Source: a virus (Duplodnaviria > Caudoviricetes). From it: a stretch of DNA of 52,228 bases. The notes beneath the pieces were generated by a model, which worked only from the letters and a program-made list of their open reading frames with translations, ran no database searches and had not been told where the DNA came from. Below are positions 3-52,053 of the stretch, one piece after another (the stretch's first letter is position 1; each line of letters starts with the position of its first letter). The DNA lies in IMG/VR virus record IMGVR_UViG_3300020472_000038, positions 1 to 52,228 of that record. One strand, 5' to 3'. The translations under genes were made by a program, and so were the position numbers.

Positions 3-734
3 ATCCGATTTTTACCGGCACCAGAAGGTGAAGACTTGCCATGGGCAAGAATCTGGAATCATGGTTTTCAGGGGCCAGGTGGCTGGTATATTGAAAACTC
101 TTTGACTACTCTTGGTCAGAAAGATCCAGTAAGTGAACATAATTCCACACTTTGGAATTCTGGTATTGAGGCAAACAAAGAGGTTGCCCGTAAACAGAAA
201 CGTAGATTGAATTACACATCTAATGTGTATATCATCAAAGACCCAGCTCATCCTGAGAATGAAGGTCAAGTCAAACTTTATCGTTTCGGTAAAAAAATCT
301 TTGACAAGATTAATGACCTAATGAATCCAGAGTTTGAAGATGAGAGTCCAGTAAATCCATTTGACCTTTGGACAGGTGCGAACTTCAAGATGAAGATTCG
401 TAAAGTAGAAGGTTATTCCAATTACGATAAGTCTGAGTTTGAAGCTCCTAGTGTACTTCTTGAAGATGAAGCTCGTCTGGAAGAAATCTGGAAGTCGGAA
501 AGCTCTTTAAAAGAGTTGGTGAGTGAAGACAAGTTCAAGTCATTTGATGAACTCAAAACTAAACTGGATCGTGTTCTTGGTTTGGGTAGTGAGTTCTCTC
601 CTACACCTAAGACTGTAGATGTTCCATTTGATGGTGGTAAACCTTATACGGCTCCACCTAAACCAGCTGCTACTGCAACTGATGATAGTGATGAATCTAT
701 GGAGTATTTTCAGAAATTAGCTCAAGAAGCTTAA
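3..734 (+). CDS. gp32: Single-stranded DNA-binding protein, T4 gp32 family (5'-truncated by window edge)
   Basis: Frame open from window start: IRFLPAPEGEDLPW...HGFQGPGGWYIENSLTTLGQKDPV...GKKIFDKI...PFDLWTGANFKMKIRKVEGYSNYDKSEF, acidic C-tail ending YFQKLAQEA; typical gp32 motifs of marine T4-like phages. Confidence 0.97.
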   Translation: MRFLPAPEGEDLPWARIWNHGFQGPGGWYIENSLTTLGQKDPVSEHNSTLWNSGIEANKEVARKQKRRLNYTSNVYIIKDPAHPENEGQVKLYRFGKKIFDKINDLMNPEFEDESPVNPFDLWTGANFKMKIRKVEGYSNYDKSEFEAPSVLLEDEARLEEIWKSESSLKELVSEDKFKSFDELKTKLDRVLGLGSEFSPTPKTVDVPFDGGKPYTAPPKPAATATDDSDESMEYFQKLAQEA

Positions 735-744
735 TCAATTAAAA

Positions 745-773
745 CTAGTGGGAGCTGAATAAGTTCTCACTAG
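745..773. terminator. Hairpin between convergent gp32 and tape-measure genes; probable intrinsic terminator
   Basis: CTAGTGGGAGCT-gaata-AGTTCTCACTAG 12-bp stem (two G-U pairs on +, two A-C mismatches on -); TTTT follows on the minus strand. Confidence 0.55.
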
Positions 774-3616
774 CCATTCTGTAGTGCTCTTACTGTGGAT
801 TCATTAGTTCTTGTGGGTTCGGGCATAGAAACTGCTGTAGTTTGACTACTTTGTACACTATTATCTACATTATTATTGTTGATGATAACTGGTTGTCCAC
901 CACCAGTTCCTGCTAATGCATTTTCTTGTGACTTATTAACAAGGGTCGTTGCTTTCTGATTTGCGAGTTCACCTTGTACAAAAGTTCCCTCTGTCAAACC
1001 GGCCTTCTTCAATTCTAAAGCCTTACCTCTCATCCCTGCTATTTTCTTCGCATTTCTAATTTTGGATCTGTCTACTTTACCCTTAATATTATATTTTGCT
1101 TTTAACTGCGCTTTAGTCATACCTTCAGCATATATTTCATCATCATCGGGTTGTTCTGCTATCCTCTTTGCAGTTTTAGTCAGTTCAGCACCAGAAGCAC
1201 TTTGTAACGCAGCATTAATTGTAGTAGCATCTATTCTTTTGAAGGATTGCATTCCTTCACCTAATGCCTTTATTCCTATAGCAACTTCTTGTAAATGTTT
1301 TGGATCTTTAATCTTTTCAGTGGCCATACTTAGTGCACCAATGAAAGATTCAAATGATGTTTCCTTGCCAGGAGTCCAATTATTTCCAACTATTGAAGCC
1401 ATATCTAAGCCGGAAAAGGTGTCCATTGCTTTTCCTAATGGTGTTAAACCATCTGCAACCTTTTGCATCTCTGCAGGTGAAGCCATTTGACCCAATTTTT
1501 CTGAACTTAAAAGATCAAAGAAAATTTCTAATGTTGATTTACCAAAAGTACTTTCATCAACTATCTTGGCAATATCTACACCAGAAAATCCAGACATTGC
1601 TTTACCAAACGGGCCGAGTCCTTCAGCAAGATTGTTCAAATTATCTGCATTAATTTTAACTTTTGAATCTCCTATCTTGGCTATAACCTTAATAAAGGAT
1701 TCTATATCAGTATCACCACCAAAGAAACCACCTTTCATTTCAAAACCAGCAAATGCAGATATTCCCTCTCCTAGAGGCCCCAAGCCTTCTCCAAGTTGTT
1801 TTAATCTTGCCGCATCAATATCTTTATCTTTTGATAATTCAATTATCGTATCAATAGGACTTTTAACACCAAAGAAAGAACCAAGGCCTTCCATAACCCC
1901 ACCAATTACACCAAGAATACTTCCAACTCCAAAGGCAGCAATTCCCGCACCTATACCTGCAATTCCTTTACCAAGATCAATTAATTTATCTGAATCAAGG
2001 TCTTTTAATTGTTCAAACATTCCTTTACCGATGCCACCAATGAAGCCACCGATACCTTGTCCAAGATTAGTAAGAAGGCCTTTGAGTGCACTACCATCTA
2101 AACCTATCATTTTTCCTATTGCTGCAATTCCTTCAGCTGCAAGTAACCCCAAAGAAAAAGCTGAAATACCGGCACCTATTGCACCCATACCCAAGACCGC
2201 GACCTTCACTCCTGCAGGCCCAGCAAACCCAAGAGCACCCGCAGCTACCAACAATCCTCCAAGTACTGCAACACTTATTCCTGAAAATGCTTCAAAGGTG
2301 TTTGAAAGTAATGTATTAAGAGACTTACCATCCAATCCAATCAAAGCACCAAGTGATGCAAATCCTTCAGCTGCAAGAATACCAAGTGTGAAAGCAGCAA
2401 CACCACCACCTATCGCGCCCATACCTTTCATAATAGCTTTTACTCCACCTTTTACTGCACCAACAGCTACTCCACCTATCAACAATGCCCCAAGAGCTTT
2501 AGAATCCACTCCACCAAATGCACCAAAAACATTAGTCATCAATGTAGCAAGATTTTTTCCATCCAATGCAATTAAATCTCCAAGTTTTGCAAATCCTTCA
2601 GCTGCAAGAATACCAAGAATAAAAGCAGCAACACCACCACCAATTGCACCCATACCTAACATCACTCCTACTTTACTGACTTTGAACTTTTCCAATCCGA
2701 TAGCAGCTCCTATAATTGAAGCCATAACTACCAAATCAGTTCCAGAAAATGCACCAAAGACATTCTTTATAAGTGTATTCAACATCTTACCATCGAAACC
2801 CGCAAGTTCAGCTATTTTACCTGCACCTCCTAGTGCTAATATGAATGCACCAACACCAGCACCAATTGCAGTCATACCTAATACTACTCCTGCTTTGGTG
2901 GTTTTAGTTTTTTCCAATCCTACAGCAGCTGCTATAATTGAAGCCATAACTACTAAATCAGTTCCAGAAAATGCACCAAAGATATTCGTTACAAGTGTAT
3001 TCAACATCTTACCATCAAATCCTGCAAGTTCAGCTATTTTACCTGCACCTCCTAATGCTAATATAAATGCACCAATACCAGCACCTATTGAACCCATACC
3101 CAATATCACTCCTGCTTTTGTGGTTTTGGTTTTTTCCAATCCTATAGCAGCTCCCATTACTGCTGCTAGAACCACCAAATCAGTTCCAGAAAATGCACCA
3201 ATGGTATTTTCTACAAGAGCCTTTAAGGATTTACCATCAAAACCCGCAAGTTCAGCTATTTTACCTGCACCTCCTAATGCTAACATAAATGCACCAATAC
3301 CTGCAGCGATTGATCCCATTCCTATAATAAAACTCGGGCCAATCTTTGATACCGCCTTACCTATTGAACCAATACCAGCACCAATACCACCGAGAAGTCC
3401 TGCAATTAATCCACCTTGTTTTTTATCTGATTGAACTGCACCACCAACACCCGCCTTGAGAGTAGCAAGGATATCCTGTTGGATTTTCTTACTTTCTTTC
3501 GCGTCTCTTGCAGCTTCTTGTTCACGTTCTATATCTGAAGAATCTTTCTTTACAGGTTTTTTAAGAGTAGTGTCTATTGTTTTTAACGATTCAACTACAT
3601 CTTTTAAGTTTGCCAT
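770..3616 (-). CDS. Tape-measure-like / baseplate hub tail-length determinator (gp29 position), 948 aa
   Basis: Gly/Ala-rich hydrophobic helical repeats, C-terminal PVIINNNNVDNS motif typical of T4-like gp29 equivalents, directly downstream of gp26/gp51-like genes. Confidence 0.75.
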   Translation of the reverse strand: MANLKDVVESLKTIDTTLKKPVKKDSSDIEREQEAARDAKESKKIQQDILATLKAGVGGAVQSDKKQGGLIAGLLGGIGAGIGSIGKAVSKIGPSFIIGMGSIAAGIGAFMLALGGAGKIAELAGFDGKSLKALVENTIGAFSGTDLVVLAAVMGAAIGLEKTKTTKAGVILGMGSIGAGIGAFILALGGAGKIAELAGFDGKMLNTLVTNIFGAFSGTDLVVMASIIAAAVGLEKTKTTKAGVVLGMTAIGAGVGAFILALGGAGKIAELAGFDGKMLNTLIKNVFGAFSGTDLVVMASIIGAAIGLEKFKVSKVGVMLGMGAIGGGVAAFILGILAAEGFAKLGDLIALDGKNLATLMTNVFGAFGGVDSKALGALLIGGVAVGAVKGGVKAIMKGMGAIGGGVAAFTLGILAAEGFASLGALIGLDGKSLNTLLSNTFEAFSGISVAVLGGLLVAAGALGFAGPAGVKVAVLGMGAIGAGISAFSLGLLAAEGIAAIGKMIGLDGSALKGLLTNLGQGIGGFIGGIGKGMFEQLKDLDSDKLIDLGKGIAGIGAGIAAFGVGSILGVIGGVMEGLGSFFGVKSPIDTIIELSKDKDIDAARLKQLGEGLGPLGEGISAFAGFEMKGGFFGGDTDIESFIKVIAKIGDSKVKINADNLNNLAEGLGPFGKAMSGFSGVDIAKIVDESTFGKSTLEIFFDLLSSEKLGQMASPAEMQKVADGLTPLGKAMDTFSGLDMASIVGNNWTPGKETSFESFIGALSMATEKIKDPKHLQEVAIGIKALGEGMQSFKRIDATTINAALQSASGAELTKTAKRIAEQPDDDEIYAEGMTKAQLKAKYNIKGKVDRSKIRNAKKIAGMRGKALELKKAGLTEGTFVQGELANQKATTLVNKSQENALAGTGGGQPVIINNNNVDNSVQSSQTTAVSMPEPTRTNESTVRALQNG
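2100..3330 (-). repeat. Tandem 74-78 aa (222-234 nt) repeats in tape-measure gene
   Basis: aaatcagttccagaaaatgcacc at 2733, 2955, 3177 (222-nt period); ccttcagctgcaag at ~2130, 2364, 2595; protein unit GMGxIGAGxxAF...GxDGKxL...FGAFSGTDLVV. Confidence 0.9.
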
Positions 3617-3636
3617 TTATCTCTCTGTTATTTGTT

Positions 3637-3840
3637 TTAACTACTAGCTTTACGATTTTGTTCTTCAATCTTAGCATTTTCTTCAAATACCCATTGTGAT
3701 AATAATTCTGAATATAGTGTTCTTTCGTAGGGCAACATATCCTCGATTTCCGTCAAACTCCAATTATGATGTTGGCACATAGCAAAATTTTGTAAATAAT
3801 ATGCTTCAAGTGAGTTATGACTTAGGCAGATGCGAAAAAA
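3637..3840 (-). CDS. gp51-like baseplate hub assembly protein; first ATG only at 3780 (47 aa), frame open from the slippery site at 3840
   Basis: Manual translation FFRICLSHNSLEAYYLQNFAMCQHHNWSLTEIEDMLPYERTLYSELLSQWVFEENAKIEEQNRKASS*; resembles the small cyanophage gene after gp26 (NFALMQHHKYSLTELENM.PWER pattern); missed by the ORF track. Confidence 0.8.
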   Translation of the reverse strand, partial: FFRICLSHNSLEAYYLQNFAMCQHHNWSLTEIEDMLPYERTLYSELLSQWVFEENAKIEEQNRKASS

Positions 3841-4529
3841 GATGCAAGGCCCTCTAAAGTTTCCGTTTCAGTCTTTCCACACTTTGGACAAGTATACTCA
3901 ATATCCTGTTTCAGTTTTGGTAAAGATTCATAATAATCTTGAAGCTTTTTAAATTGACTAGAATTTAATGAATTTACAAACTCATCTAATTCTTTTTTAG
4001 TATGGTCTTGAGCAGAAAATACGTCTTCACCTTGAATAATTTCAAGTAAACTATTTCTAATTATTTCCATAACTAAGTCTATTTGATTTTTATTTTCAGT
4101 TCCAATAACATCATCTATACCTGGCGGACTCAAACGAACCATAATATCATCTGTTATTTCTACTAAATCAGAAGAATTTTTATTTTGAACCACCTCTACT
4201 TTAGAAAGGTCTATATCAACTTTAATGATTTCACCACATTCGTGCTCAAAAGAAATTGTACTTATATCTCCAACTGCTTTTCCTCTAATGTTAAGAAAAA
4301 GATATTCAAGGTCAATCATTGCAATGCTATTAACATTAAAATTTTCAGTTAATACACATTGAGTTATTATTTGTTTTATGGCTTTCGCCATATCTTTTTC
4401 TTCTCCACCCTCTAAAGCTGTTAGAAGAATTTTTTCTTCCTTGACTAAAAATGGTCTGTATTCAATTTTTTTACCAGATGCCGGTAATTCTAAATCATAT
4501 CGTACAGTATTTAATTTTGGCAAAGCCAT
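3822..4529 (-). CDS. gp26: Baseplate hub subunit / assembly chaperone gp26
   Basis: MALPKLN...YRPFLVKEEKILL...DLEYLFLNIRGKAVG...CPKCG...LEGLASFF; GGAG RBS upstream. Confidence 0.92.
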   Translation of the reverse strand: MALPKLNTVRYDLELPASGKKIEYRPFLVKEEKILLTALEGGEEKDMAKAIKQIITQCVLTENFNVNSIAMIDLEYLFLNIRGKAVGDISTISFEHECGEIIKVDIDLSKVEVVQNKNSSDLVEITDDIMVRLSPPGIDDVIGTENKNQIDLVMEIIRNSLLEIIQGEDVFSAQDHTKKELDEFVNSLNSSQFKKLQDYYESLPKLKQDIEYTCPKCGKTETETLEGLASFFASA

Positions 4530-4563
4530 AATGTTCTCCTTTTCAAATCATTATTTTATAATA

Positions 4564-5106
4564 TTAGTTAAGTAACATCCATTTTCTATATTTGAATGTT
4601 ACACTAAGTTTTAGTATTTCTCCTCCCATCGCGTGACCCAGCGCAATTTCACCAACTGCAGAAGGATATGCTTCTCTCAACTCTATCTTATAACTGTCTG
4701 TTGCTGTTTGAAAATCAGTTGCATCATTTGATAATCTAGTTATATTAATTGTTGAAACAAAATTGTTCCAATAGTTAACATTACCAGTTTTAACATTTAT
4801 TATATTTCTTTGCCATCTGTCAAAAAACCTTTTTACAGTAAATTTATCATCTAAAATAAAAGATAATGCAGCTTCTGTAAATGTTTCCCTATAGGGTATT
4901 TCTCTTGGTGGGCCATATATATCCTGTGCATTAGAAGCTATACCTTTAGTTGGAAGTGAAACAGCTTCACATAGATATTGTAAATTCTCGTTTACAGCTG
5001 TTGACAGTCCTTGAGGAAGATCGCTGAAGGTTACTTGATATCTATTCCCTTTAGCAAAATCATCAATTCTACTTCTTAGTGTATCTATTGTAAATACATC
5101 TGCCAT
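4564..5106 (-). CDS. gp54: Baseplate tail-tube initiator (gp54 / tail-tube fold)
   Basis: NRYQV..., CEAVSLP, YGPPREIPY, FFDRWQ, LREAYPSAVGEIAL, LSVTFKYRKW: gp19/gp54 tube-fold motifs. Confidence 0.75.
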   Translation of the reverse strand: MADVFTIDTLRSRIDDFAKGNRYQVTFSDLPQGLSTAVNENLQYLCEAVSLPTKGIASNAQDIYGPPREIPYRETFTEAALSFILDDKFTVKRFFDRWQRNIINVKTGNVNYWNNFVSTINITRLSNDATDFQTATDSYKIELREAYPSAVGEIALGHAMGGEILKLSVTFKYRKWMLLN

Positions 5107-5705
5107 TAATAGTATTCCCTGCTGTCATTCCAGACAACACTTTTCTTCTGTTTTTGAAATCTTTCAACTGGTAGGAATATTGCTATTTCCCACTCGTCTG
5201 CGTTTATCCTTACGGTATTTGAACGTATATTAGTACCAAGATATCTTTTTACACAAGGTACTGCTCTTCCAAATCCCTTCAGTAAATTATACGTTATTTT
5301 CAATCTTGTAGTTGCATCATATTTATTATTAGTTGCATACTCTTTCAATTGATCCATAAGGATTGCTCTATCTCTTGGTGGAATATAATGTAGATTCAAA
5401 CCATAAAATCCACCTTTAGCTTTCTCAAATGGAAACACTAAAGGATACATATCCCAATAAGGTAGTTTTTTAGCAAACTTTGGGTCATATTTGTAGAATA
5501 ACATTTTTCCAAGTGTTGCACTACCTTCTTCTTCTCTTTTAAGAAGTTGTGTTGGAGTTACTGCTCTCATACGAGCACTTGCACTTGCTTGTTTGACCTT
5601 TTCTCTAAACCAATCCCCAGCTGCCCTAGCTTTTGCAGTTGCTTTTGAGGTTTTAATTGATGATTTGAGTGTATCTAAAAAACCTTCTTGTGATAATTGT
5701 GCCAT
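5106..5705 (-). CDS. gp2: DNA end protector protein
   Basis: YDPKFAKKLPYWDMYPLVFP, GFYGLNLHYIPP, CVKRYL, AIFLPVERF. Confidence 0.95.
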   Translation of the reverse strand: MAQLSQEGFLDTLKSSIKTSKATAKARAAGDWFREKVKQASASARMRAVTPTQLLKREEEGSATLGKMLFYKYDPKFAKKLPYWDMYPLVFPFEKAKGGFYGLNLHYIPPRDRAILMDQLKEYATNNKYDATTRLKITYNLLKGFGRAVPCVKRYLGTNIRSNTVRINADEWEIAIFLPVERFQKQKKSVVWNDSREYY

Positions 5706-5709
5706 AATA

Positions 5710-6132
5710 CTAATATTTAGTTAAATCTTGTTCAGTTAATATTTGCCATTTCCAATTTCTGGTTTCACAGTAAGCCATAGCTGCTTTCCACTTTGCTTCA
5801 TTAATTCCCCAAATTTTGACCTCTTTGATAAATCTTCTTCTATTTGGTTTTGGTTTGGGTGGTTTAGTTTGAACCTTTGATTTGATTTCTATAAGAGTTT
5901 CACCTTGTGCAGTCTTTACCCAAAAGTCGGGAAAATAACGATGGACTTTACCATCTATAGGAGAACGATAGGGGATAACAATCTCTTCACTTGACCACTT
6001 TAAAATAGAATCATTACCATCAAGATACCTCATGAATCTCAATTCCAATCCAGAGCGATGAACTATTTTACGGTAATCTCCTTTGTATTTGGATATGTTT
6101 TTTGGTTTATATAATCCTTTCTTGATCCTCAT
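5710..6132 (-). CDS. gp4: Head completion protein (PD-(D/E)xK nuclease fold)
   Basis: YKPKNISKYKGD...RSGLE..WSSEEIVIPYRSPIDGKVHRYFPDF...IEIK...NEAKWKAA...ILTE; ATG at 6132 preferred over 6165. Confidence 0.95.
   Translation of the reverse strand: MRIKKGLYKPKNISKYKGDYRKIVHRSGLELRFMRYLDGNDSILKWSSEEIVIPYRSPIDGKVHRYFPDFWVKTAQGETLIEIKSKVQTKPPKPKPNRRRFIKEVKIWGINEAKWKAAMAYCETRNWKWQILTEQDLTKY
5714..5721 (-). promoter_or_regulatory. T4-type late promoter variant ACTAAATA upstream of gp2
   Basis: tatttagt on + strand, 8 nt before the gp2 ATG. Confidence 0.55.
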
Positions 6133-6139
6133 ATAAATA
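6132..6139 (+). promoter_or_regulatory. T4 late promoter TATAAATA upstream of gp48
   Basis: Exact gp55 consensus in the divergent gp4/gp48 region; TATAAATT on the minus strand at 6177-6184 may drive gp4. Confidence 0.7.
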
Positions 6140-6193
6140 TGTAGTAACGGCATAAAACCGCCCAAATAGAATTTTTAATTTATAGGAATAGTA

Positions 6194-7195
6194 ATGAAAA
6201 TTTACACAGAAATTGTTTGGTCATGGGATGATGATAGAGGAGAACTGGTAAGAGAATCCTCAAAATCTTATGATTATGAGGGCCCGTTAACTCTTTTAAA
6301 TGATAATTCGGTTGAAAGTACTATAGCGGCCCAAGCATATGGTGCGGGAGATAACTTCACATATCCAAAAGATACCAACCCCGGCTTACCTCATTATATA
6401 AGATTCATTGCAAGAAGATCATATACATCTACAAGTACTACAAGAGGAACATCAAATGGAGAAGTTGTTTTATATATGCCCCCCGATGCTTTGAAAACTT
6501 CATATAGTCAAAGTATTGGTGATATAGAAATGGGAGGTTTTATTAGTTTAGCTCGTTCAGATATGGCTGGTGCTGGTGCTGCAATGGCAAAAGGTAATAT
6601 TAGGGGAGCTATGGCTGCAGCTGGTGTATTAAAGGGAGATGTCGCAGGTTCTGATAAAATAGACATACTCAAAGATTTTGGTAAAGCAGCTGTTACAGAG
6701 TTCGGGAAAAAGGCTGCTGGTACTTCAGCAGGTCAAGCAGTATCAAAGGCCACTGGACAAATTTTAAATCCACATAAAGCAGTGGTGTATCAAGGGCCTG
6801 GTGGATTTCGTACTTTCACTTTCACTTTTCAATTGATACCAAAATCTAAAGACGAATCTAAAGAAATTTTTAATATAGTAAGATTTTTCAAAAAGAGAAT
6901 GCATCCTGGCACTGGTGGAGGAGCTGGAATTAACAATCTATCATCTGTTACTTTAACATATCCAGATGAATTTGAAATAAAATATTATGTTAATAACAGA
7001 GAAGTCGATGGTAGTGATTTTACTAAACCACTATTTAAAATTAAAAACTGTTTTATGGAATCTTTTTCCGCAGATTATTCAACATCTTCACTTGTTTCTT
7101 TTATGGATGATGGAAATCCATTAACTACTACAATATCAATGTCATTTAAAGAAACACAACTTCTCACCAAAAAAGATATAGACGAAGGGTATTAA
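6194..7195 (+). CDS. gp48: Baseplate tail tube cap
   Basis: VVLYMPP, ILNPH..VYQGPGGFRTFTFTFQLIPKSKDE, YPDEFEIKY, MSFKETQLLTK. Confidence 0.92.
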   Translation: MKIYTEIVWSWDDDRGELVRESSKSYDYEGPLTLLNDNSVESTIAAQAYGAGDNFTYPKDTNPGLPHYIRFIARRSYTSTSTTRGTSNGEVVLYMPPDALKTSYSQSIGDIEMGGFISLARSDMAGAGAAMAKGNIRGAMAAAGVLKGDVAGSDKIDILKDFGKAAVTEFGKKAAGTSAGQAVSKATGQILNPHKAVVYQGPGGFRTFTFTFQLIPKSKDESKEIFNIVRFFKKRMHPGTGGGAGINNLSSVTLTYPDEFEIKYYVNNREVDGSDFTKPLFKIKNCFMESFSADYSTSSLVSFMDDGNPLTTTISMSFKETQLLTKKDIDEGY

Positions 7196-7196
7196 T

Positions 7197-7781
7197 ATGT
7201 CATCAGAATTTTTTGCAAATTATCCAAGAATAGCTTATGATATATCTGGTGATAATTCTACAGCTCCGAATTATACTGTTGCTGTCAATTTAATGATTAG
7301 AAACAAACTAAAAGAAGCAGTTGAAGATGATATAACAGTATATTATCCTTATGTTGTTCCAGAAGGTATGCGACCAGATGTTCTTTCTTATCAATATTAT
7401 GGAGATACAATTTATACTTGGACAATATTTCTTGCTAACAACATAGTAGATCCTTATTGGGAATGGCCCCTCAGTTACAAAGATTTTAGAGAATATGTGT
7501 CAGACAAATATGGTTCAATAGAAACAGCTAAATCTCAAATTCATCATTATGAATATATTGCAAGAGCTAGAGCTGAGAAAACAGGGACTAGTGATCCAGT
7601 TCCAGAGTATAAATTAGAAATTGATTATCAAACTTATACAGAGACAGATGTTGATGAAAGAGAAATAATCTATGCATACAATTATGAAAAAGATTTAAAC
7701 GAAACAAAAAGAGAAATTCAATTAATTGATGCCGTATACATACAATCTGTCCAAGATGAAGTTAGAGGATTATTTAGATAA
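7197..7781 (+). CDS. gp53: Baseplate wedge subunit (LysM-like)
   Basis: FFANYPRIAY, RPDVLSYQYYGD, WTIFLANNIVDPYWEWPL, IHHYE, NETKREIQLI. Confidence 0.95.
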   Translation: MSSEFFANYPRIAYDISGDNSTAPNYTVAVNLMIRNKLKEAVEDDITVYYPYVVPEGMRPDVLSYQYYGDTIYTWTIFLANNIVDPYWEWPLSYKDFREYVSDKYGSIETAKSQIHHYEYIARARAEKTGTSDPVPEYKLEIDYQTYTETDVDEREIIYAYNYEKDLNETKREIQLIDAVYIQSVQDEVRGLFR

Positions 7782-44205: not shown

Positions 44206-45159
44206 ATGAGTGGAGTAATTGGACAAGGACTTAACTCTTCTGGTTTGGCGATTGACAAATCGGATGCGGGGGATTTACAACAATATGCAACAGGTGGCCG
44301 AATCTATGATTACACTTTAGCTGGCATAAGATATCGTTGTCATAAATTTGTATATGAAACGGGGCATACTGACGATGATTTGGTCAATCACCAACAAGAA
44401 TTTGAAGTGAAACAAACAATTACAGCAAACTGTCTTATTGTTGCAGGTGGTGGTGGCGGAGGCCGCAACACCAACTACGCTGGTGGTGGTGGAGCTGGAG
44501 GTTTTCGAGTTGGTGATTTAACTTTTAATGCGGGTGTAACATATTCTATCGCAGTTGGTGCTGGTGGAGGTGGTAACCAAGTTACCCACGGCGACGATGA
44601 TGGTGAAGACGGCGGAGGATCATATATTTCTGGAACAGACATTACTGATATCGGTTGCAGTGGTGGTGGGGGCGGCCAGGGTACTCTCGGTGCAACTGGA
44701 TTTGCCGGTGGATCTGGTGGTGGAGGAACTGCTGTAAATGCTGCTGGCGGATCGGGAATAGCTGGTGAAGGCAATGCTGGAGGTTATGGAGCGTGTGTTG
44801 GCCAAGGTGGTTCTGATTCTGGTGCTGGTGGTGGTGGTGGTGCAGGTGGTGTGGGTAGTCATGTTGCACCAAACGCAGCTACAAATTCTCCTGGCACTGG
44901 AGGAGATGGTTGCCAAAATGACTATGCAGGTATATACGGCCAATGGTATTCTGCCGGCGGTACTGGTGGAGGTTATTACAGAGGCGCCATAAGATGTGGA
45001 ATTGGAGGTTCTAATGGTGGCCGCAGAGGTTTCAAAGATGGCAGACCCCAAACTGGTGCTGGTGGTGGTGGTTCAGATTCTAAATCCACCAACCCTAACA
45101 TAGGCGGTTTTGGGGGAAGTGGAGTTGTAGTAATACGTTATGTCTTACCGGGGCAATAA
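44206..45159 (+). CDS. Glycine-rich domain protein (phage tail-associated type)
   Basis: LIVAGGGGGG, GGGGAGGFR, YSIAVGAGG, GFGGSGVVVIRY. Confidence 0.85.
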   Translation: MSGVIGQGLNSSGLAIDKSDAGDLQQYATGGRIYDYTLAGIRYRCHKFVYETGHTDDDLVNHQQEFEVKQTITANCLIVAGGGGGGRNTNYAGGGGAGGFRVGDLTFNAGVTYSIAVGAGGGGNQVTHGDDDGEDGGGSYISGTDITDIGCSGGGGGQGTLGATGFAGGSGGGGTAVNAAGGSGIAGEGNAGGYGACVGQGGSDSGAGGGGGAGGVGSHVAPNAATNSPGTGGDGCQNDYAGIYGQWYSAGGTGGGYYRGAIRCGIGGSNGGRRGFKDGRPQTGAGGGGSDSKSTNPNIGGFGGSGVVVIRYVLPGQ

Positions 45160-45189
45160 TATAATAAGTTAATTTTATTATAATTTGTA

Positions 45190-46071
45190 ATGAAAACAAA
45201 TCTTTATGTTGTTACTGGTGGAATTGGTAAACAAGTTTTATTTTCTAATTTAATTGAAGATTTAGCAAAAAAGGATGATACTTTAATATCAATTGCAAGT
45301 GTATATCCTACACTATTTGTTAATCATCCTTTAGTTTATTCTTCTATTGATCTTTGGGATATAGACCATTTAAATATTGAACATAAAACCTTTGATCCCA
45401 AATTAATTGACAAATATTTCCATAATATTATAGGTTTTGATCCTTTTTTTTCAAATTATCTTAAATTAGAAGATCACATAATAAATTCTTGGCGTGAAGG
45501 ATTATCTTTAACTCCCACCCAAAACACATACACAGATATTGTGGTTAATAGTGATAATGCAAAAACTTATAATGGGTTTTTACATATTGAGGGAAATGAG
45601 AGATTTGTTATTGTACAATTAAAGGGTGGAACATACATTAATAATAAAAGTAGAAACGAGAAACTTAAAGAAATTAGAGACTATTCTGACACATATCAAT
45701 TAATTTCTGCAATAGCTAATCGTTTTTATGATATTCATTTTTTGATTGTGAGAACTACAGAAGATGTGTATGATGAAAGAATTGATAAATTACCAAATGT
45801 TGGATATGCGGAAAATATTCCATTACTTGACATCCAATATCTGGTTAATAAGTGTTTAACTTTTATTTCTATTGATAGTTGTATTCAACATTTTGCAGTT
45901 AATAAAGAAAACTTAAAAAAAGGAATAGTATTGTGGGGTAATATTGTCGGCCCCCAAATAAATACTATTGGACATAAATATAACACTAATCTAATGTCAG
46001 AAAAAATAAATGAACTATATATTCATGAAGATGTTATATTAGAAAAACTTGAAAATATTTTATCACAATAA
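45190..46071 (+). CDS. Putative glycosyltransferase (GT-B, GT9/heptosyltransferase-like)
   Basis: N-terminal GGIGKQV, C-terminal FISIDSCIQHFA...GIVLWG...GHKYNTN; visibly more AT-rich than neighbours. Confidence 0.75.
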   Translation: MKTNLYVVTGGIGKQVLFSNLIEDLAKKDDTLISIASVYPTLFVNHPLVYSSIDLWDIDHLNIEHKTFDPKLIDKYFHNIIGFDPFFSNYLKLEDHIINSWREGLSLTPTQNTYTDIVVNSDNAKTYNGFLHIEGNERFVIVQLKGGTYINNKSRNEKLKEIRDYSDTYQLISAIANRFYDIHFLIVRTTEDVYDERIDKLPNVGYAENIPLLDIQYLVNKCLTFISIDSCIQHFAVNKENLKKGIVLWGNIVGPQINTIGHKYNTNLMSEKINELYIHEDVILEKLENILSQ

Positions 46072-46103
46072 TTACTATTATCTAATTTTTTAAAAAAGGA
46101 AAT

Positions 46104-46349
46104 ATGGCTGATCAAAACAGCGCGCCCCTCATAGCTAATAGTGCTGGTGTTTTTGCTCCAGACGCGGATTTTCCAAAAGGATATACCAGAGTTACTGCTC
46201 ATCAATTTAGAAGAGAGGCAGAGTATCCAAGTATACAGGATCTTGTTGTGGCCATTCAGGAAAAATTGGAAGGTGACTCTGATGCATGGGATGCTCTGGT
46301 AACAGCAAGAGCGGCGATTAAATCAAAATATCCAAAAGCATCATCATAA
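46104..46349 (+). CDS. Small tail-fibre-associated protein (81 aa)
   Basis: RREAEYPSIQDLVVAI...AIKSKYPK motif common next to phage fibre genes; AAGGA RBS. Confidence 0.7.
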   Translation: MADQNSAPLIANSAGVFAPDADFPKGYTRVTAHQFRREAEYPSIQDLVVAIQEKLEGDSDAWDALVTARAAIKSKYPKASS

Positions 46350-46393
46350 AATCAAATTAAATTTTTAAAGAATTTCTCTTAATCTTTTCCTTT

Positions 46394-46401
46394 ACTAAAT
46401 A
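46394..46401 (+). promoter_or_regulatory. Late promoter variant ACTAAATA
   Basis: Intergenic, upstream of neck-region genes. Confidence 0.6.
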
Positions 46402-46437
46402 ATAAAAGAAAAGGTTTTAACTATAGAGGGATTCTTG

Positions 46438-48180
46438 ATGGCGCTGACTTTACACAAACAAACTGAAAATTTTGTATTGGATCAAGGGGCCACCTTTATC
46501 AAGACTTTTACCGCCAAAAATACAGCAGGTGGTAATGTGGTCATATCTTCCGGCACTACAGAGGCCAAGTTAAGACAATCCATAGACTCTAGTAACAATA
46601 TACACGCCTTTTCTACATCCGTTTCTGGATCAAATGTTACTATTTCAATGACAGCAACAAATACTGCCAACATTTCTGAAGATCGCAGATATGTGTATGA
46701 TGTGGAATTTACTCAATCTGATACCACTACTGTAGAAAAAATAGTAGAAGGTATTGTAACTATATCTCCGCATGCAGGCGATAGAGACTTTCCAGATATT
46801 ATAACAGAGAGTATAGCTGATGGTCAATGGGGGAATACCAAATGGACTGACTTTGTTAGAAATGATGGTTCAAAAGATAGGTTAGTTACTTGGAAAGGTT
46901 CGGGAACGGAACTCGAATGGGGAGACAGCGGTGAGGACAGATGGTATGAAATGGAAGGCCCTCATCATCAAGATATTGAGGAAATGGCAGATGTAGTAGT
47001 AGCAGAAGGAACATACTCTAGTCATGAAGCGTGGGATCAAGCATTGATGAGATTGGTAGAATATCCCAATACCTACAATAGTGATACTGATACTTGGAGT
47101 ACTGGTAGTTATGCTGCTCTTTCTGATGGTGAAGCAAGAAGTGGAGATCCATTTACTGTTTGTTCAGTATTTTCATCACCCTTTAATCCAAACACAGATG
47201 AAGATTATGATCCAGACAATCATGGAACAATTTGGGCTGCAGCACCATATCATTCTAGTAGATCGCGAGGGGGTGGATGGAGGTTACAAACTAAACATAA
47301 TAGACTCAGCTTTCAGATAGGACATTGGAATAGGAATCAAGATAACTACAATCGTGTCGATGGATACCTTAAACCAGAATTTGGAGTATCAGCAAATGTT
47401 TATTTTGAGACACATAATCCTGACTGTTATCAAGATCCATTTGAAATAGGTAATCAACGTACAAACATACATCAAACAATGAATCCTAATGGAGTTGATG
47501 GAGATGTGCGTATGTGGTATCACATCACTTGTGTATATAATGGTGGGCCTGTGGGATATTGGAAACCTAGTACAAGATCTGAAAGTGAGGAAGAGTTAAT
47601 ACAAAACATTAAGGACTCTTTTAAATTCTACCAAACAAATTTATTGACAGGGAAAGTACACGAAATAAAATGGTATCATATACAAGCGAGTAATAAACAT
47701 GATTACTTAGGATTTATTCAAGGAGTAGGATACAGGGGGGATAGACAAGAAGTGGGTTCGACAGGAACATTTTTTGGTGCATTCTGTGATGGATCTCAAA
47801 ATGCATTTGTATTTAAATCGAATTGGGGTGGTACATGGGTAACAAATACAGCATTATCTCACTCAGACTTACAGGGTGACACTTCAGAAACTAAAGCTAG
47901 TCAGCCTTTTAGAGTAAATGGATTCTCTATGGATCCGCTTGGATGGGCAACAAAATACAATAAAGATGCTACAAACACATGGGTATGGAGTCCAAGTCAT
48001 CATCCAAATAGAACTGAAGATTCTTCTGAAAATAAAAAAAATGAATATCCTAATATAACATCTGGTGCTTCAGATAGTAATGATCTTAGAGCTCTTGGAT
48101 CAATGGATGACAAAGGTTATTTTTACACTATGGCAGACAACTCATACTGGGCAAATAACTATCCAACAGATACAACGTAA
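46438..48180 (+). CDS. Hypothetical protein: DQGATF-type N-terminal domain plus ~465-aa Trp-rich, possibly lectin-like extension
   Basis: First ~113 aa paralogous to 48190..48534; WYHITCVYNGG resembles a LamG/ConA motif. Confidence 0.75.
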   Translation: MALTLHKQTENFVLDQGATFIKTFTAKNTAGGNVVISSGTTEAKLRQSIDSSNNIHAFSTSVSGSNVTISMTATNTANISEDRRYVYDVEFTQSDTTTVEKIVEGIVTISPHAGDRDFPDIITESIADGQWGNTKWTDFVRNDGSKDRLVTWKGSGTELEWGDSGEDRWYEMEGPHHQDIEEMADVVVAEGTYSSHEAWDQALMRLVEYPNTYNSDTDTWSTGSYAALSDGEARSGDPFTVCSVFSSPFNPNTDEDYDPDNHGTIWAAAPYHSSRSRGGGWRLQTKHNRLSFQIGHWNRNQDNYNRVDGYLKPEFGVSANVYFETHNPDCYQDPFEIGNQRTNIHQTMNPNGVDGDVRMWYHITCVYNGGPVGYWKPSTRSESEEELIQNIKDSFKFYQTNLLTGKVHEIKWYHIQASNKHDYLGFIQGVGYRGDRQEVGSTGTFFGAFCDGSQNAFVFKSNWGGTWVTNTALSHSDLQGDTSETKASQPFRVNGFSMDPLGWATKYNKDATNTWVWSPSHHPNRTEDSSENKKNEYPNITSGASDSNDLRALGSMDDKGYFYTMADNSYWANNYPTDTT

Positions 48181-48189
48181 GGAATATAA

Positions 48190-48534
48190 ATGGCACTGAC
48201 TTTAAGTAAAAGAACCATAAATTTTGTAATGGATCAAGGGGCTACCTTTGAAAAGGTAATCTATGCACAAAACTCTGCAGGAGGAAATGTCACAATTTCT
48301 ACAGGTACTTGTGCCGCTAAGATGCGACAATCTACATATTCTGGTAACAATATCCACACTTTTTCAACTTCTGTTGCTGGATCGAATGTCACAATTTCTA
48401 TGACTGCAACAAATACTGCAAACGTTGCTGCAGATCAGTATGTATATGATGTTGAATATACTCAATCAGATGGAACTACTGTAGAGCGGGTTTGTCAAGG
48501 AATTATAACCGTATCACCAGAGTCTACAAAATAA
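48190..48534 (+). CDS. Small pre-neck virion protein (DQGATF domain)
   Basis: DQGATF, AKMRQS, ISMTATNT, YVYDVE, RVCQGIITVSP; typical of the gene upstream of gp13 in marine T4-like phages. Confidence 0.8.
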   Translation: MALTLSKRTINFVMDQGATFEKVIYAQNSAGGNVTISTGTCAAKMRQSTYSGNNIHTFSTSVAGSNVTISMTATNTANVAADQYVYDVEYTQSDGTTVERVCQGIITVSPESTK

Positions 48535-48545
48535 GGATTTAACAA

Positions 48546-49577
48546 ATGACACAGCCTACAACCAGAACTACATTTAAAGATTATTGTAAAAGAAAATTGG
48601 GCCATCCAGTTATTGAACTAAATCTTGATGATGATCAGATTGAAGATACTATTGATGACGCAGTAACTTATTGGCAAGAATATCATTTTGATGGTACTCA
48701 TCCAGAATTTGTTAAAAAACAAATTACTGCTTCAACTCAACTGGTTTCTTCACAGTCTGGAACTTTTTCTGCAGGTGAAACTATTGAGGGAGGAACGAGT
48801 GGAATAAGAGCTACAATTAATGATTATATCAGCTCAAATACTACGATAAGGTATTCAAAACCAACTACAAAAAACAATGCTAATGCTATAGCAAAGGGAG
48901 ATGGAAATACATATTATACTGACACTACCACAACATGGACTGCAAGTGAAACCATCACAGGATTAACAAGTGGAGCAACAGCAACAGTACATTCTTCTAC
49001 AGCTCAAACACTTGGTGATATAGACAATCATTATATTTCTTTAGATGAGAGTTATATTGGAATCACAGGAGTTATACCACTTACCGAAAACTTGAGTGGT
49101 AGTACAAATATGTTTTCAGTCAATTATCAGTACGCGCTGAATGATCTTTATACAATGGGTGCAGCTGGTGATATGAAAAACTATGTGTTTACTCAGCAAT
49201 ATCTTTCTACTATTCAAAACCTTTTTTCTGGATTACCTAGATTCAGATTCAATCGACATAGAGATAGATTATATCTAGATATAGATTGGTCTGCAGATCT
49301 TAAAATAGATGATTTTGTTGTAATTGAAGCTTATGCATCAATGAATCCAGAAACGTATACAGATGCCTATAGTGATATTTTCCTTAAAAAATATTGTACA
49401 GCTTTGATGAAAAAACAATGGGGTATGAATCTTATAAAATTTGAAGGGGTTCAATTGCCAGGGGGTGTTACGTTAAATGGAAGACAACTATATGATGACG
49501 CAGTTACAGAACTTGAAAAATTAGAAGTTGAAGGAAGGCTAGAGTATCAGCTACCCGATGACTTCTACATGGGTTAG
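48546..49577 (+). CDS. gp13: Neck protein
   Basis: DYCKRKLGHPVIELNLDDDQIED, EYHFDG, FLKKYCTALMKKQWG.NLIKFEGVQLPGGVTLNG. Confidence 0.97.
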   Translation: MTQPTTRTTFKDYCKRKLGHPVIELNLDDDQIEDTIDDAVTYWQEYHFDGTHPEFVKKQITASTQLVSSQSGTFSAGETIEGGTSGIRATINDYISSNTTIRYSKPTTKNNANAIAKGDGNTYYTDTTTTWTASETITGLTSGATATVHSSTAQTLGDIDNHYISLDESYIGITGVIPLTENLSGSTNMFSVNYQYALNDLYTMGAAGDMKNYVFTQQYLSTIQNLFSGLPRFRFNRHRDRLYLDIDWSADLKIDDFVVIEAYASMNPETYTDAYSDIFLKKYCTALMKKQWGMNLIKFEGVQLPGGVTLNGRQLYDDAVTELEKLEVEGRLEYQLPDDFYMG

Positions 49578-49586
49578 AGGATATAA

Positions 49587-50558
49587 ATGGCAACCAATCA
49601 TTACTTCAATCACTATGGAACAGATACACCAGATCAAAAATTAGTTGAAAACATCGTAATTGAGTCGATTAAATCTTTTGGTATTGATGTTCACTATATG
49701 CCTAGGACTGAAGTTAATACAGATTCTATCTATGGAGAAGATCGTATTTCTAAGTTTGAAGACGCTCGAATGGTAGAAGTTTATATTAAGAGTATAGATG
49801 GATTTGAGGGAGATGGTACATTTGTAAGTAACTTTGGACTAGAAGTAAGAGATCAAATTACTTTTACAATTGCTCGTAGAAGATTTCAAGAATTAAATTT
49901 TGAAACTGGAAATAGAGATAAAGAACCACTAGAGGGTGATCTTATTTTCTTTCCTTTATCTGACTCTCTTTTTGAAATCAAGCATGTACAAGATACGAAT
50001 GTTTTTTATCAAATGGGTGGACTACAAACTTTTGATTTAGTTTGTGAACTGTTTGAATATGGAGATGAAGCAATTGATACTGGTATTGAGGAGTTGGATA
50101 AGATAGAAAGAGAAGAATCCTATTCAATAAAATTCACTCTAGGTACTGGAGCTGGTACATTTACAGTCGGTGAACAAGTATATCAAGGTTCTACTGGATA
50201 TGCAAATTCTTCAATTAAAGGAGAAGTTTTTGATTGGAATTCTAGTACAAGTCTTCTTACAGTTGGAAATATTGTTGGAACTTTTGATGAAGATAATCAA
50301 ATGTATGAATATCCGTTTTCTATAGCATTAGAAGATGATACTACACTTCTGTTGGAAGATGGTACAACAAATACTCCAAACTCTTCAACTGAAGGTAAAC
50401 CCTTCTTTGAATCTGGTGCATCGTATGCCACAACATCTTTTGATGATAAAGTAATATCAAATGATGCTTATGCAAACAATGTTGGAATTGAAACTGTTGC
50501 TGATGGGATTTTAGATTTTTCAGAGGGTAATCCATTTAGTGAAGGAACAGGGTACTAA
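49587..50558 (+). CDS. gp14: Neck protein
   Basis: ESIKSFGIDVHYMPR, FGLEVRDQ, PLEGDLIFFP, FEIKHV, FYQMG, CELFEY, ILDFSEGNPF. Confidence 0.96.
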   Translation: MATNHYFNHYGTDTPDQKLVENIVIESIKSFGIDVHYMPRTEVNTDSIYGEDRISKFEDARMVEVYIKSIDGFEGDGTFVSNFGLEVRDQITFTIARRRFQELNFETGNRDKEPLEGDLIFFPLSDSLFEIKHVQDTNVFYQMGGLQTFDLVCELFEYGDEAIDTGIEELDKIEREESYSIKFTLGTGAGTFTVGEQVYQGSTGYANSSIKGEVFDWNSSTSLLTVGNIVGTFDEDNQMYEYPFSIALEDDTTLLLEDGTTNTPNSSTEGKPFFESGASYATTSFDDKVISNDAYANNVGIETVADGILDFSEGNPFSEGTGY

Positions 50559-51616
50559 TGTTAGGATCTACCTTTTATCATCAAACTATAAGAAAATATG
50601 TAGCAGTGTTTGGAACTCTTTTCAATGATATTAATATTGAAAGGAAAAATTCAAGTGGTGTTGTTGTTGAGAAAATGAAAGTTCCTCTTGCGTATGGCCC
50701 CAAACAAAAGTGGTTACTTGCTGTTCAAGATACCACTGCGGATAGAAAAGTTGTAGCGACAAGAACTCCAAGGATGGGGTTTGCTATGACAGGAGTTACT
50801 TATGACTCTGCTAGAAAATTGAATACGATTGGTAGAAATATTGCAGCCAACACTTCTTCTACTTCTACCAACATGAATACAATGTATAATCCTGTTCCTT
50901 ACAATTTTGAGTTTTCATTATTCATACTTGTTAAGAATGCTGAAGATGGAACACAAATTTTAGAGCAGGTACTCCCCTATTTTACACCAGAGTTTACTGT
51001 TACTGTCAATACAATTCCCGATATGAACATCAAGGCAGATATTCCTATTACGTTGAACTCTGCTGATGTAGCAGATGAGTATGAGGGTGATTTATCAACA
51101 AGAAGAACTATTACTTGGACTCTTTCATTTACACTTAAAGGGTTTATCTATCCAAATATTTCTTCTGGTCAAGTTATTAAAACAATTGAAGTTAATTTCC
51201 GAATTCCTGGCGGAGATACAGAAATTGAACTTCCAGACTTTATTATACATGAAGATAGTGATTTTGATACTACTAACTATATACTATTAGATGGAACAAA
51301 TTTAGTTATTTTTACATTACTAGAAGAAAGTCAAAGTTCTACTTCAGTAGGTGATCTTAGACTCCTTTTGGAAGATGGGGCTTTTGTGTTGAATGAAGAA
51401 AGTGATAATACATACAGAACATATAATAGAGCAAGAATTATGAACGAAAAAGCTACTGATGGTATACAAGATGCTACAATCAAGTCTCGTTACACAGTCG
51501 TTCCTACACCTCTTTCTACAACAGCAGACTCTGATTATGGTTTCTCAGAAACTTTTGAATTTTTTGATGAAGGTAAATATAATGATCCAACCGATGGTGA
51601 GGATATAGCAACATGA
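50558..51616 (+). CDS. gp15: Tail sheath stabilizer / tail terminator
   Basis: FYHQTIRKYVAVFGTLFNDI, VPLAYGPKQK, PRMGF, PVPYN, QILEQVLPYFTPEF. Confidence 0.96.
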   Translation: MLGSTFYHQTIRKYVAVFGTLFNDINIERKNSSGVVVEKMKVPLAYGPKQKWLLAVQDTTADRKVVATRTPRMGFAMTGVTYDSARKLNTIGRNIAANTSSTSTNMNTMYNPVPYNFEFSLFILVKNAEDGTQILEQVLPYFTPEFTVTVNTIPDMNIKADIPITLNSADVADEYEGDLSTRRTITWTLSFTLKGFIYPNISSGQVIKTIEVNFRIPGGDTEIELPDFIIHEDSDFDTTNYILLDGTNLVIFTLLEESQSSTSVGDLRLLLEDGAFVLNEESDNTYRTYNRARIMNEKATDGIQDATIKSRYTVVPTPLSTTADSDYGFSETFEFFDEGKYNDPTDGEDIAT

Positions 51617-52053
51617 AGGATGTGATGCCTATGAATGTAGATGATCACTTAGATGAAATGTTAGGTATTGTAAACAAACCTAAGAAAGAAATTGTTAAGG
51701 CAGAACGATTAGTTCCTACTATTTCAGTTGATGATAGTGGCGATAGTGAAATAGATTTCCAATATGTGAGAGAGAACCTTTACAATCTCATAGAACGAGG
51801 ACAAGATGGTTTGGAAGAAATGCTTGAAATTGCCAAAAGTTCTGAACATCCTCGAGCGATGGAAGTTTTTGGACAGTTAATAGGAAAACTTACTGAAACA
51901 AATAAAGAATTGTTAAATTTACATAAAACAAAAAAAGACATTTCAGCTGAAGATTCTGGCCCCAAAAATGTCTCCAATAATCTTTTTGTGGGTTCAACCG
52001 CTGAATTACAAAAATTCCTTAAAACAGGGAAAACAATAAAAGAAAATGAATAA
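51613..52053 (+). CDS. gp16: Terminase small subunit
   Basis: DFQYVRENLYNLIERG, SEHPRAMEVFGQLI, NNLFVGSTAELQKFLK. Confidence 0.95.
   Translation: MKDVMPMNVDDHLDEMLGIVNKPKKEIVKAERLVPTISVDDSGDSEIDFQYVRENLYNLIERGQDGLEEMLEIAKSSEHPRAMEVFGQLIGKLTETNKELLNLHKTKKDISAEDSGPKNVSNNLFVGSTAELQKFLKTGKTIKENE

Follow-up and report, generated by a model that had tools for sequence, protein, structure and literature searches.

A five-base word that should occur some 35 times in a phage DNA segment of this size, and that occurs nowhere in it, raises the question of what has removed it. The word is GGWCC (W, A or T), and the segment is the 52,228-base IMG/VR virus record IMGVR_UViG_3300020472_000038, which was analysed in its full length (hereafter, the window). 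The window (35.2% G+C) is the sole contig of its genome, with a CheckV completeness of ~29%, and probably originates from a lytic marine myovirus of the T4-like kind, in whose lineage selection has eliminated every GGWCC. Annotation with PHROGs identified genes for a gp32-like single-stranded DNA-binding protein, baseplate hub and wedge, tail-tube, neck and sheath stabiliser proteins, and the small terminase subunit, in agreement with the gene names (gp32, baseplate, neck, and small terminase) used in a preliminary description of the same DNA. The window also encodes two structural proteins of giant size (2,807 and 2,311 residues), and no tRNA genes were found in it. The features on which the following analysis relies are:

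1..52228, no strand assigned: T4-like structural module and GGWCC-free span, from the gp32-like single-stranded DNA-binding protein to the small terminase subunit (PHROGs)
72..51963, no strand assigned: 34 Gly-Pro codon pairs, the main places at which GGWCC is replaced by GGSCC (S, G or C), all GGG-CCN or GGC-CCN; first bases at 72, 1610, 1775, 2216, 3335, 4909, 6281, 6794, 8111, 9200, 9671, 9947, 10505, 10895, 11468, 12111, 12642, 13080, 14383, 16926, 16962, 17553, 24305, 24668, 26540, 29466, 29664, 35715, 38792, 45949, 46957, 47545, 50696, and 51958
18156..20048, + strand: gp6-like baseplate wedge gene (PHROG 219, E = 2e-165), which served as the marker for finding and placing relatives (tblastn, loci, and tree)

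Absence of GGWCC and the synonymous route of its loss

Neither GGACC nor GGTCC is present on either strand of the window. In the preliminary description, GGWCC had been called apparently absent and a comparison with amino-acid-preserving shuffles had been proposed; the comparison bears the statement out. Permutation of codons within each of the 37 called genes (200 synonymous shuffles) gives an expectation of 35.4 +/- 3.3 copies with a minimum of 25, and 100 dinucleotide-preserving shuffles give 35.45 +/- 5.01. The under-representation therefore exceeds what base, dinucleotide, and codon composition account for under both null models, and the Poisson probability of zero copies at a mean of 35.4 is ~4e-16. 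When the strand-merged words of 4, 5, and 6 bases that averaged at least 6 copies in the shuffles were ranked by the synonymous null, GGWCC was the most depleted word (z = -10.7), and the most enriched were GGCC (85 observed versus 28.3 expected) and GGSCC (48 versus 10.0). Counts given below as one number versus another are likewise observed versus expected.

The codons used for Gly-Pro pairs show how the word is avoided. Glycine is encoded by GGA (622 codons), GGT (761), GGG (102), and GGC (106) in the window, so that GGA and GGT make up 87% (1,383/1,591), as had been noted earlier in general terms. Neither of these two codons is found in any Gly-Pro pair, of which there are exactly 34, comprising 20 GGG-CCN and 14 GGC-CCN; the probability of this outcome under the gene-wide glycine usage is ~1e-30. 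The preliminary count of about 34 pairs, all with GGG or GGC, is thus exact, and its end points coincide with the first (72-77) and last (51958-51963) pairs.

The other reading frames are equally clean. Following an NGG codon, ACC is used in none of 21 Thr codons and TCC in none of 15 codons of the four-codon serine box (Ser4), and neither G-GAC-C nor G-GTC-C occurs in the window; with the Gly-Pro pairs held fixed, a further 7.2 +/- 2.6 GGWCC would be expected, against 0 observed. The total number of GGNCC words, 48, is close to the expected 45.4 +/- 3.2 and every copy is S-centred, and therefore W has been swapped for S one for one and synonymously. The ban is limited to the exact pentamer. 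Words with a W centre and one mismatch number 737 versus 780.5 +/- 13.7, and the lowest classes among them are GGWCA (z = -2.5) and GGWCG (z = -2.2), no class falling below -2.5. With one-mutation neighbours this near to expectation, the idea that near-miss words are also avoided, as a form of mutational robustness, was rejected.

As a separate observation, GGCC is in surplus beyond the compensation at Gly-Pro pairs (85 versus 54.9 +/- 3.8 with the 34 pairs fixed). The residual GGCC comes mainly from a preference for GGC before codons that start with C (GGC-CAN, 16/87; GGC-CGN, 9/15).

Maintenance and recurrence of the loss among relatives

Judged by gp6 identity, Methylophilales phage Melnitz (42%) and the Pelagibacter phages Mosig and HTVC008M (39-41%) are the closest cultured phages, with the cyanomyoviruses more distant (32-39%). 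No close DNA relative was found by megablast among 50,697 phage records, and IMG/VR and other metagenome assemblies contain uncultured relatives with 84-90% gp6 identity, none of them on a contig longer than 35 kb.

The window genes were aligned codon by codon with those of nine relatives that contain GGWCC in normal numbers (GGWCC-normal relatives). At 14 distinct positions, distributed over all three frames, a relative has GGWCC and the window encodes the same amino acids with a synonymous alternative, e.g. (relative to window) GGA-CCT to GGG-CCT, TGG-TCC to TGG-AGT, TGG-ACC to TGG-ACA, GTG-GAC-CAA to GTT-GAC-CAA, and TTG-GAC-CCT to TTA-GAC-CCA. The amino acids differ in the window at 24 further GGWCC positions of the relatives; another 16 comparisons failed to align, and 1 fell in a gap. 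At conserved Gly-Pro positions, GGA or GGT is used in 29 of 40 comparisons by the GGWCC-normal relatives and in 0 of 40 by the window. Within the window's own clade (14 members, 6-18% DNA divergence), the number of one-mutation precursors combined with the observed substitution spectrum predicts ~47.6 new GGWCC, of which 1 was observed; as these 14 relatives overlap and are not independent, the figure is an indication, and not a probability, that purifying selection against GGWCC is ongoing within the clade.

Relatives also extend the view beyond the window. On the gp32 side, upstream of the window, 10 loci with at least 83% gp32 identity contain 0 GGWCC versus ~24 (in overlapping copies). Towards gp15, 5 versus 152 were counted over 218 kb in 34 loci (74-89% identity), and 39 loci that cover the head and the recombination and clamp-loader module contain 7 versus 154 over 253 kb. 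Walking from contig to contig in both directions likewise added sequence free of GGWCC. The possibility, raised in the preliminary description, that GGWCC is present at near-expected frequency across the genome was thus examined through the relatives' flanking DNA, in which the sites are nearly absent. As far as the relatives show, the ban is genome-wide, though not absolute.

In a broader sample of 80 IMG/VR loci obtained with gp6, 14 were GGWCC-free (0 versus 106.5 over 181 kb), 50 were normal (434 versus 454 over 710 kb), 3 were low, and 13 were too small to judge. On a maximum-likelihood tree of gp6 (84 rows, quick search), the GGWCC-free trait requires 6 changes, at least 4 of which are forced by branches with support of at least 95 in the Shimodaira-Hasegawa-like approximate likelihood ratio test (SH-aLRT), whereas shuffled labels require 14.2 on average. 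The GGWCC-free lineages are the window clade, L013/L030, L011, L026-L031, L050/52/56/77, and Melnitz. A sister lineage with 68% gp6 identity (L384) is likewise GGWCC-free. The loss of GGWCC has arisen repeatedly, is patchy among relatives, and does not characterise the phage family as a whole.

The cultured phages illustrate this patchiness. Melnitz (MZ577097.1), like the window a marine T4-like myovirus and one of its nearest cultured relatives, contains no GGWCC in its complete genome of 141,548 bases (0 versus 100.7). GGWWCC is also scarce in Melnitz (3 versus 59), and CCTGA/TCAGG and ACCWGG are depleted in both phages. Melnitz differs in also purging GATC, CGCG, and CCGG, all three of which the window keeps, and in having a C5-methylase/TET gene pair (described below), which was not seen in the window. 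Neither GGWCC loss nor site avoidance is mentioned in the main text of the Melnitz paper (PMC9004378).

The 42-kb segments of Mosig and HTVC008M keep GGWCC (20 versus 21 and 15 versus 20, respectively) and are devoid of GGSCC (0 versus 12 and 0 versus 9, respectively). No enzyme with GGSCC as its recognition site is known to us. A mirror-image strategy, in which these SAR11 phages would methylate GGWCC and purge GGSCC against a single GGNCC enzyme, was considered and found to be unsupported: neither PF01555 nor PF00145 was matched in either phage, and no C5 or N4/N6 DNA methylase was found in their complete records. Other words are missing from them as well, namely CASTG in Mosig (0 versus 72) and HTVC008M (1 versus 92), ACGT in Mosig (0 versus 77), and TCGA in HTVC008M (1 versus 53). 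The marine T4-like cyanophages (Kyanoviridae) belong to the same family as the window's phage, and site purging is used by both, but in the reverse sense. The cyanomyoviruses S-PM2, S-RIM44, S-CAM3, and S-RIM12 (L428-L431), which share 32-39% gp6 identity with the window, have purged GGCC nearly completely (0-5 versus 18-29 per 19.6 kb) and retain GGWCC (16-20 versus 16-19).

The probable selective agent and a C5-methylase/TET cassette

The absence of GGWCC, its specificity, its synonymous route, its maintenance in the clade, and its repeated origin are all matters of observation, and the exactness of the lost word, the synonymous route, the clade maintenance, and the recurrence support the restriction-site avoidance proposed in the preliminary description. 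It is likely, with good confidence, that GGWCC has been counter-selected as a restriction site, either of an AvaII-type enzyme cutting GGWCC or of an enzyme cutting GGNCC, of which GGWCC is a subset; a host restriction enzyme of one or the other specificity would be the selective agent. SinI is an isoschizomer of AvaII, and Sau96I cuts GGNCC. That GGWCC is a restriction target, as also stated in the preliminary description, agrees with the recognition of GGwCC by AvaII of Anabaena PCC 7120 (PMC4390886). A genome without GGWCC would escape cutting on entry, whatever its methylation history. Recoding of Gly-Pro pairs to GGS-CCN covers most of the expected sites; NGG-ACC and NGG-TCC have been changed to other Thr and Ser codons, and G-GAC-C and G-GTC-C have been broken at the flanking or wobble base. 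The outcome is a one-for-one surplus of GGSCC with unchanged proteins.

The case adds a clean instance to a known kind of adaptation, to which the comparative picture and the coupling to a gene cassette described below are the added value. Sites of orthodox Type II systems can be completely eliminated from non-temperate phages (Rusinov 2018, PMC6286503), and the window resembles such cases in that a short palindromic Type II site has been eliminated from a non-temperate phage with its amino-acid sequences preserved; it differs in that the case is built on comparative evidence (repeated origin, comparison of homologous sites, and the drift test within the clade) and not on a known host and its enzyme. 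Three viral metagenome-assembled genomes (V-MAGs) of Myoviridae-like marine viruses have been described with methylated GGWCC (N4-methylcytosine; Hiraoka 2022, PMC8919816), and that study, too, found no host whose motif matched. These V-MAGs share environment, phage kind, and site with the window and show that GGWCC is contested between marine phages and their hosts, but they keep and methylate GGWCC, whereas the window lineage deletes it. Few restriction systems have been characterised in the surface ocean, and together with the methylated GGWCC of other marine myoviruses, the loss described here indicates that a defence cutting GGWCC or GGNCC is important there.

Several points weigh against this reading. 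Neither the host nor the cognate restriction enzyme was found, so that the selective agent is inferred; only ~29% of the phage genome is represented; and one or two sites are present in each of the clade members L173, L175, L196, and L199 (5 in 218 kb). In addition, the association with the TET gene reported below spans lineages with differing avoided sites, which is not predicted by a picture of one enzyme per host. This association is a hint that the GGWCC constraint may be set by a factor tied to the cassette and not to the host.

In Melnitz, the open reading frame (ORF) that overlaps the end of the C5-methylase gene (L084:5208-6194) is annotated as hypothetical in the record. It follows the 'hhaIM' methylase (TIGR00675) and encodes a TET/JBP dioxygenase (PF12851, 43 bits, cut-off 34.9). 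In its main text, the Melnitz paper discusses the methylase only (PMC9004378). Judging from this gene pair, Melnitz probably hypermodifies cytosine; the specificity of its methylase was not resolved by solved structures or by NCBIfam, the nearest structure being 8yf3_A, a 'cytosine-specific methyltransferase'. Homologues of the Melnitz TET protein with 48-100% identity were found in 71 IMG/VR marine viral contigs, and among the 50,697 phage records a close homologue was found only in the four Melnitz isolates.

In total, 62 of the TET contigs could be assessed, and 54 of them are GGWCC-free, 4 are low, and 4 are normal, compared with 14, 3, and 50, respectively, of the 67 assessable relatives sampled by gp6. 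The GGWCC counts in contigs grouped by TET identity to Melnitz are 0 versus 161 (>=90%), 9 versus 55 (78-86%), 21 versus 102 (65-72%), and 2 versus 103 (48-60%), and of the 7 assessable clusters that the TET proteins form at 80% identity, 6 are GGWCC-free. Eight annotated contigs have the gene order DNA polymerase, C5 methylase, TET, a protein of unknown function (420-570 residues), and glycosyltransferases; the last, of the TET-associated (TAGT) or alpha-glucosyl (AGT) type, are present in several of the eight, and in all eight either the C5 methylase lies directly upstream of TET or the contig edge truncates that place. TET is missing from Mosig and HTVC008M, both with complete genomes, and from an 85%-complete, 154-kb relative, all of which are GGWCC-normal, and L052, a member of a GGWCC-free lineage found independently through gp6, carries a TET fragment at its contig edge. 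The loss of GGWCC is thus strongly associated with a C5-methylase/TET/glycosyltransferase cassette, an association that is apparently unreported: the main texts of Burke 2021 (PMC8256090) and of a 2023 preprint (10.1101/2023.12.21.572611) contain no mention of GGWCC or of site depletion. Four TET contigs (L299, L312, L314, and L316) keep normal GGWCC numbers. The last three share one TET cluster with the low contig L315 (21 versus 37.6 in this cluster), and L299 is a member of the large Melnitz-type cluster; no gene family was found that separates these 4 contigs, which are natural controls for the cause of the GGWCC ban, from the 54 GGWCC-free ones.

The association suggests a refinement of restriction avoidance that does not oppose it, in which the cassette would hypermodify GpC[C/T] and thereby shield GGSCC, and the phage would delete GGWCC, which it cannot modify, under attack by a GGNCC or GGWCC enzyme. 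TET-linked phage methylases prefer GpC[C/T], where TET makes 5-hydroxymethylcytosine that glycosyltransferases extend (Burke 2021, PMC8256090). Every GGSCC contains GGCC and hence GpC[C/T] on both strands, whereas the cytosines of GGWCC follow W or C and never G. The refinement is favoured by the TET/JBP protein beside the C5 methylase in GGWCC-free Melnitz, by the contrast between TET contigs and gp6-sampled relatives and the recurrence over TET clusters, by the conserved gene order with its glycosyltransferases, by the missing TET in the three GGWCC-normal genomes, and by the TET fragment in L052. The avoidance of other palindromes points in the same direction: in four TET-bearing groups, 71 palindromes have an observed/expected ratio of <=0.15 and 1 of them contains GCY (Y, C or T), against 39 of the 365 tested (these counts are not independent, palindromes being shared between groups), whereas in the TET-less HTVC008M 4 of 6 tested GCY palindromes are strongly avoided. 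The window has four strongly avoided palindromes (ACATGT, CTTAAG, GGWCC, and TTCGAA), none with GCY.

On the other side, four TET contigs keep GGWCC, the methylase specificity would be that of relatives, by analogy, and the cassette was found neither in the window nor 5-10 kb upstream of gp32 in clade and sister contigs nor over ~26 kb downstream (via L185 and the 17.5-kb record G003, a path that does not cover the DNA polymerase neighbourhood). The window and its clade are also empty at the places where TET occurs in relatives, near gp32 (L332/L325) and near gp6 (L052). Furthermore, the ratios for GGCC outside GGSCC (HGGCCD) and for AGCT are 1.16 and 1.31 in the window, compared with 0.56 and 0.54 in the 54 TET-bearing GGWCC-free contigs; confirmed TET contigs are low in both words, and therefore the GGCC surplus of the window is no TET signature. 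Relaxed GGCC and AGCT, tried as a sign of modification, are for this reason unsupported for the window. In a comparison of loci, GGCC outside GGSCC has a median ratio of 0.96 in free and 0.65 in normal loci (p = 0.016, for loci that are not independent), and AGCT does not differ between the two. Assignment of TET contigs to the window clade by tetranucleotide signature was not discriminating (positives, 0.53-0.84; negatives, 0.44-0.74). The last ORF of the 17.5-kb record, first taken for RimK, is by Pfam a Bmp/PnrA-like binding protein and is followed by auxiliary genes; 80 loci sampled in that context (17 free, 11 low, and 52 normal) contained no TET or methylase and are uninformative on the cassette.

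On this evidence, modification combined with purging is a serious contender for the phages concerned but not one that we would favour outright, and the presence of the cassette in the window's own phage is possible while its absence is the better guess. That the GGWCC loss is the footprint of a GpC-specific cassette strategy, with the cassette located in the remaining ~70% of this genome, is a tentative proposal. Modification would then shield the restriction sites with GpC[C/T], every GGSCC among them, and selection would delete those whose cytosines are out of its reach, GGWCC foremost. If this is true, the near-universal ban among cassette carriers would point to one common agent, either a widespread marine GGNCC or GGWCC nuclease or a nuclease borne by the cassette. 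Broad protection by GpC-limited modification was deemed unlikely in the 2023 preprint (10.1101/2023.12.21.572611), and its question about the use of such modification would be answered, with the purge of sites without GpC[C/T] as the missing half: the coupling offers a testable account of GpC-limited modification as anti-restriction, in which the phage deletes what it cannot modify. The preliminary description had offered either plain GGWCC avoidance or GGNCC avoidance with modified variants tolerated; the TET association in relatives lends support to the latter, and the window itself cannot separate the two.

A nuclease of the phage or its cassette might instead cut GGWCC or GGNCC in unmodified host DNA, shutting the host off and recycling its nucleotides. 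T4 follows the same logic with hydroxymethylcytosine and its own nucleases. The phage would be immune through the absence of GGWCC, perhaps with modification of GGSCC. The GGWCC ban follows TET across lineages some of which lack GATC while others have it in normal numbers, and because the ban follows the cassette despite differing avoided sites, a cassette-linked agent is easier to conceive than a shared host enzyme. However, the SinI family PF09570 had 0 matches in the window and in complete Melnitz, a weak argument given that 0 of 14 control genomes matched, and the PD-(D/E)XK, SNase, and HNH genes in the flanking DNA are also present in GGWCC-normal phages (13, 6, and 8 loci, respectively). 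No gene family separates the GGWCC-normal from the GGWCC-free TET contigs. We regard both such a nuclease and the immunity that goes with it as improbable. Methylated cytosines deaminate faster, and host C5 methylation of GGWCC followed by deamination, or a codon-context bias, could in principle erode the site; the depletion of several other words, such as TCGA, ACGT, and TCAGG, does appear to be of translational or compositional origin. Decay of this kind would reduce the number of sites without eliminating all 35, and it would also affect the one-mismatch neighbours; the replacement is overwhelmingly synonymous and lies at the Gly wobble base rather than at the cytosines; and close relatives with the same codon usage have normal GGWCC numbers. 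This explanation is close to refuted. An artefact of assembly, library preparation, or window choice is scarcely conceivable, as the word is likewise missing from dozens of contigs, both in IMG/VR and in other assemblies, and from Melnitz, which is cultured and completely sequenced.

The host question and other depleted words

The expectation that GGWCC could help to predict the host holds in part. The pattern argues against the HTCC1062-type SAR11 pattern, that of the two HTCC1062 phages, and, because the cyanomyoviruses purge GGCC and keep GGWCC, against Synechococcus; no host can be named from it. The words whose depletion is shared by the window and Melnitz alone are GGWCC, CCTGA/TCAGG (23 versus 85 and 31 versus 226, respectively), ACCWGG, and GGAACC. 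A general fingerprint match with Melnitz, as a sign of a shared host, was nevertheless rejected, the residual 5-mer correlation between the two being near zero (r = 0.10, and -0.08 without GGWCC-related words). Higher correlations link the window to two further uncultured lineages without GGWCC (0.45/0.39 and 0.42/0.37). A search for a host link through bacterial assemblies yielded 29 loci and no close relative, the best being 53-57% identical phage contigs in Chloroflexota, Dehalococcoidia, and Marinimicrobia bins of metagenome-assembled genomes (MAGs), which come from another, GGWCC-normal clade. Four contigs of a GGWCC-normal sister clade with 46-57% gp6 identity (L247, L248, L250, and L249) lie in three Chloroflexota/Dehalococcoidia bins and one Marinimicrobia bin, a placement that reflects mis-binning or else points to the host of that clade. 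Purge fingerprints separate groups of otherwise similar marine T4-like phages, with GGWCC lost in the window lineage and Melnitz, GGSCC in the two SAR11 phages, and GGCC in the cyanophages. They can narrow host guesses, and the global 5-mer control warns against over-reading single motifs.

A separate depletion concerns the hexamer GGWWCC, of which the window contains only four copies:

37520..47936, no strand assigned: the only GGWWCC hexamers, GGTTCC at 37520, GGATCC at 42570 and 47931, and GGAACC at 43875

The expectation from 200 synonymous shuffles is 22.6 +/- 4.2 (range 10-32). The window has no GGTACC, and most of the upper clade has almost none. GGWWCC varies independently of GGWCC, as in the L018-L024 clade, which has 0 GGWWCC with GGWCC present, and it probably represents one or more further restriction targets. 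In codon shuffles, TCAGG (13 versus 58.3), CCTGA (10 versus 23.3), and ATCAGG/CCTGAT (3 versus 30) are also depleted in the window; Melnitz is likewise depleted in TCAGG/CCTGA, and Mosig and HTVC008M are enriched. For this non-palindromic word, a Type IIS- or III-like target and a codon-pair effect are the candidates. The window further lacks ACATGT (0 versus 23), CTTAAG (0 versus 17), and TTCGAA (0 versus 8). As GGWCC-normal relatives also have few or no copies of these three, their loss is a trait of the wider clade. CAGCTG is over-represented in the window (38 versus 8.4).

Relatives of the window carry several auxiliary genes (L090:3610-4509, L550:6322-7410, and downstream in L554 and L574). 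Genes for IscA-like and NifU/IscU-like Fe-S assembly proteins lie just upstream of gp33/gp32, and others encode a Bmp/PnrA-like substrate-binding protein, an orotidine monophosphate decarboxylase, a trypsin-like protease with a PDZ domain, a fragment of a Na/Pi cotransporter, and several 2-oxoglutarate-Fe(II) oxygenases. Within the window itself, one gene stands out by composition:

44206-45159, + strand: gene for a glycine-rich protein of 317 residues that contains long poly-Gly runs (PHROG 2295, function unknown)

Its G+C content is 49% within a 35% genome, and the product is probably a fibre or decoration protein.

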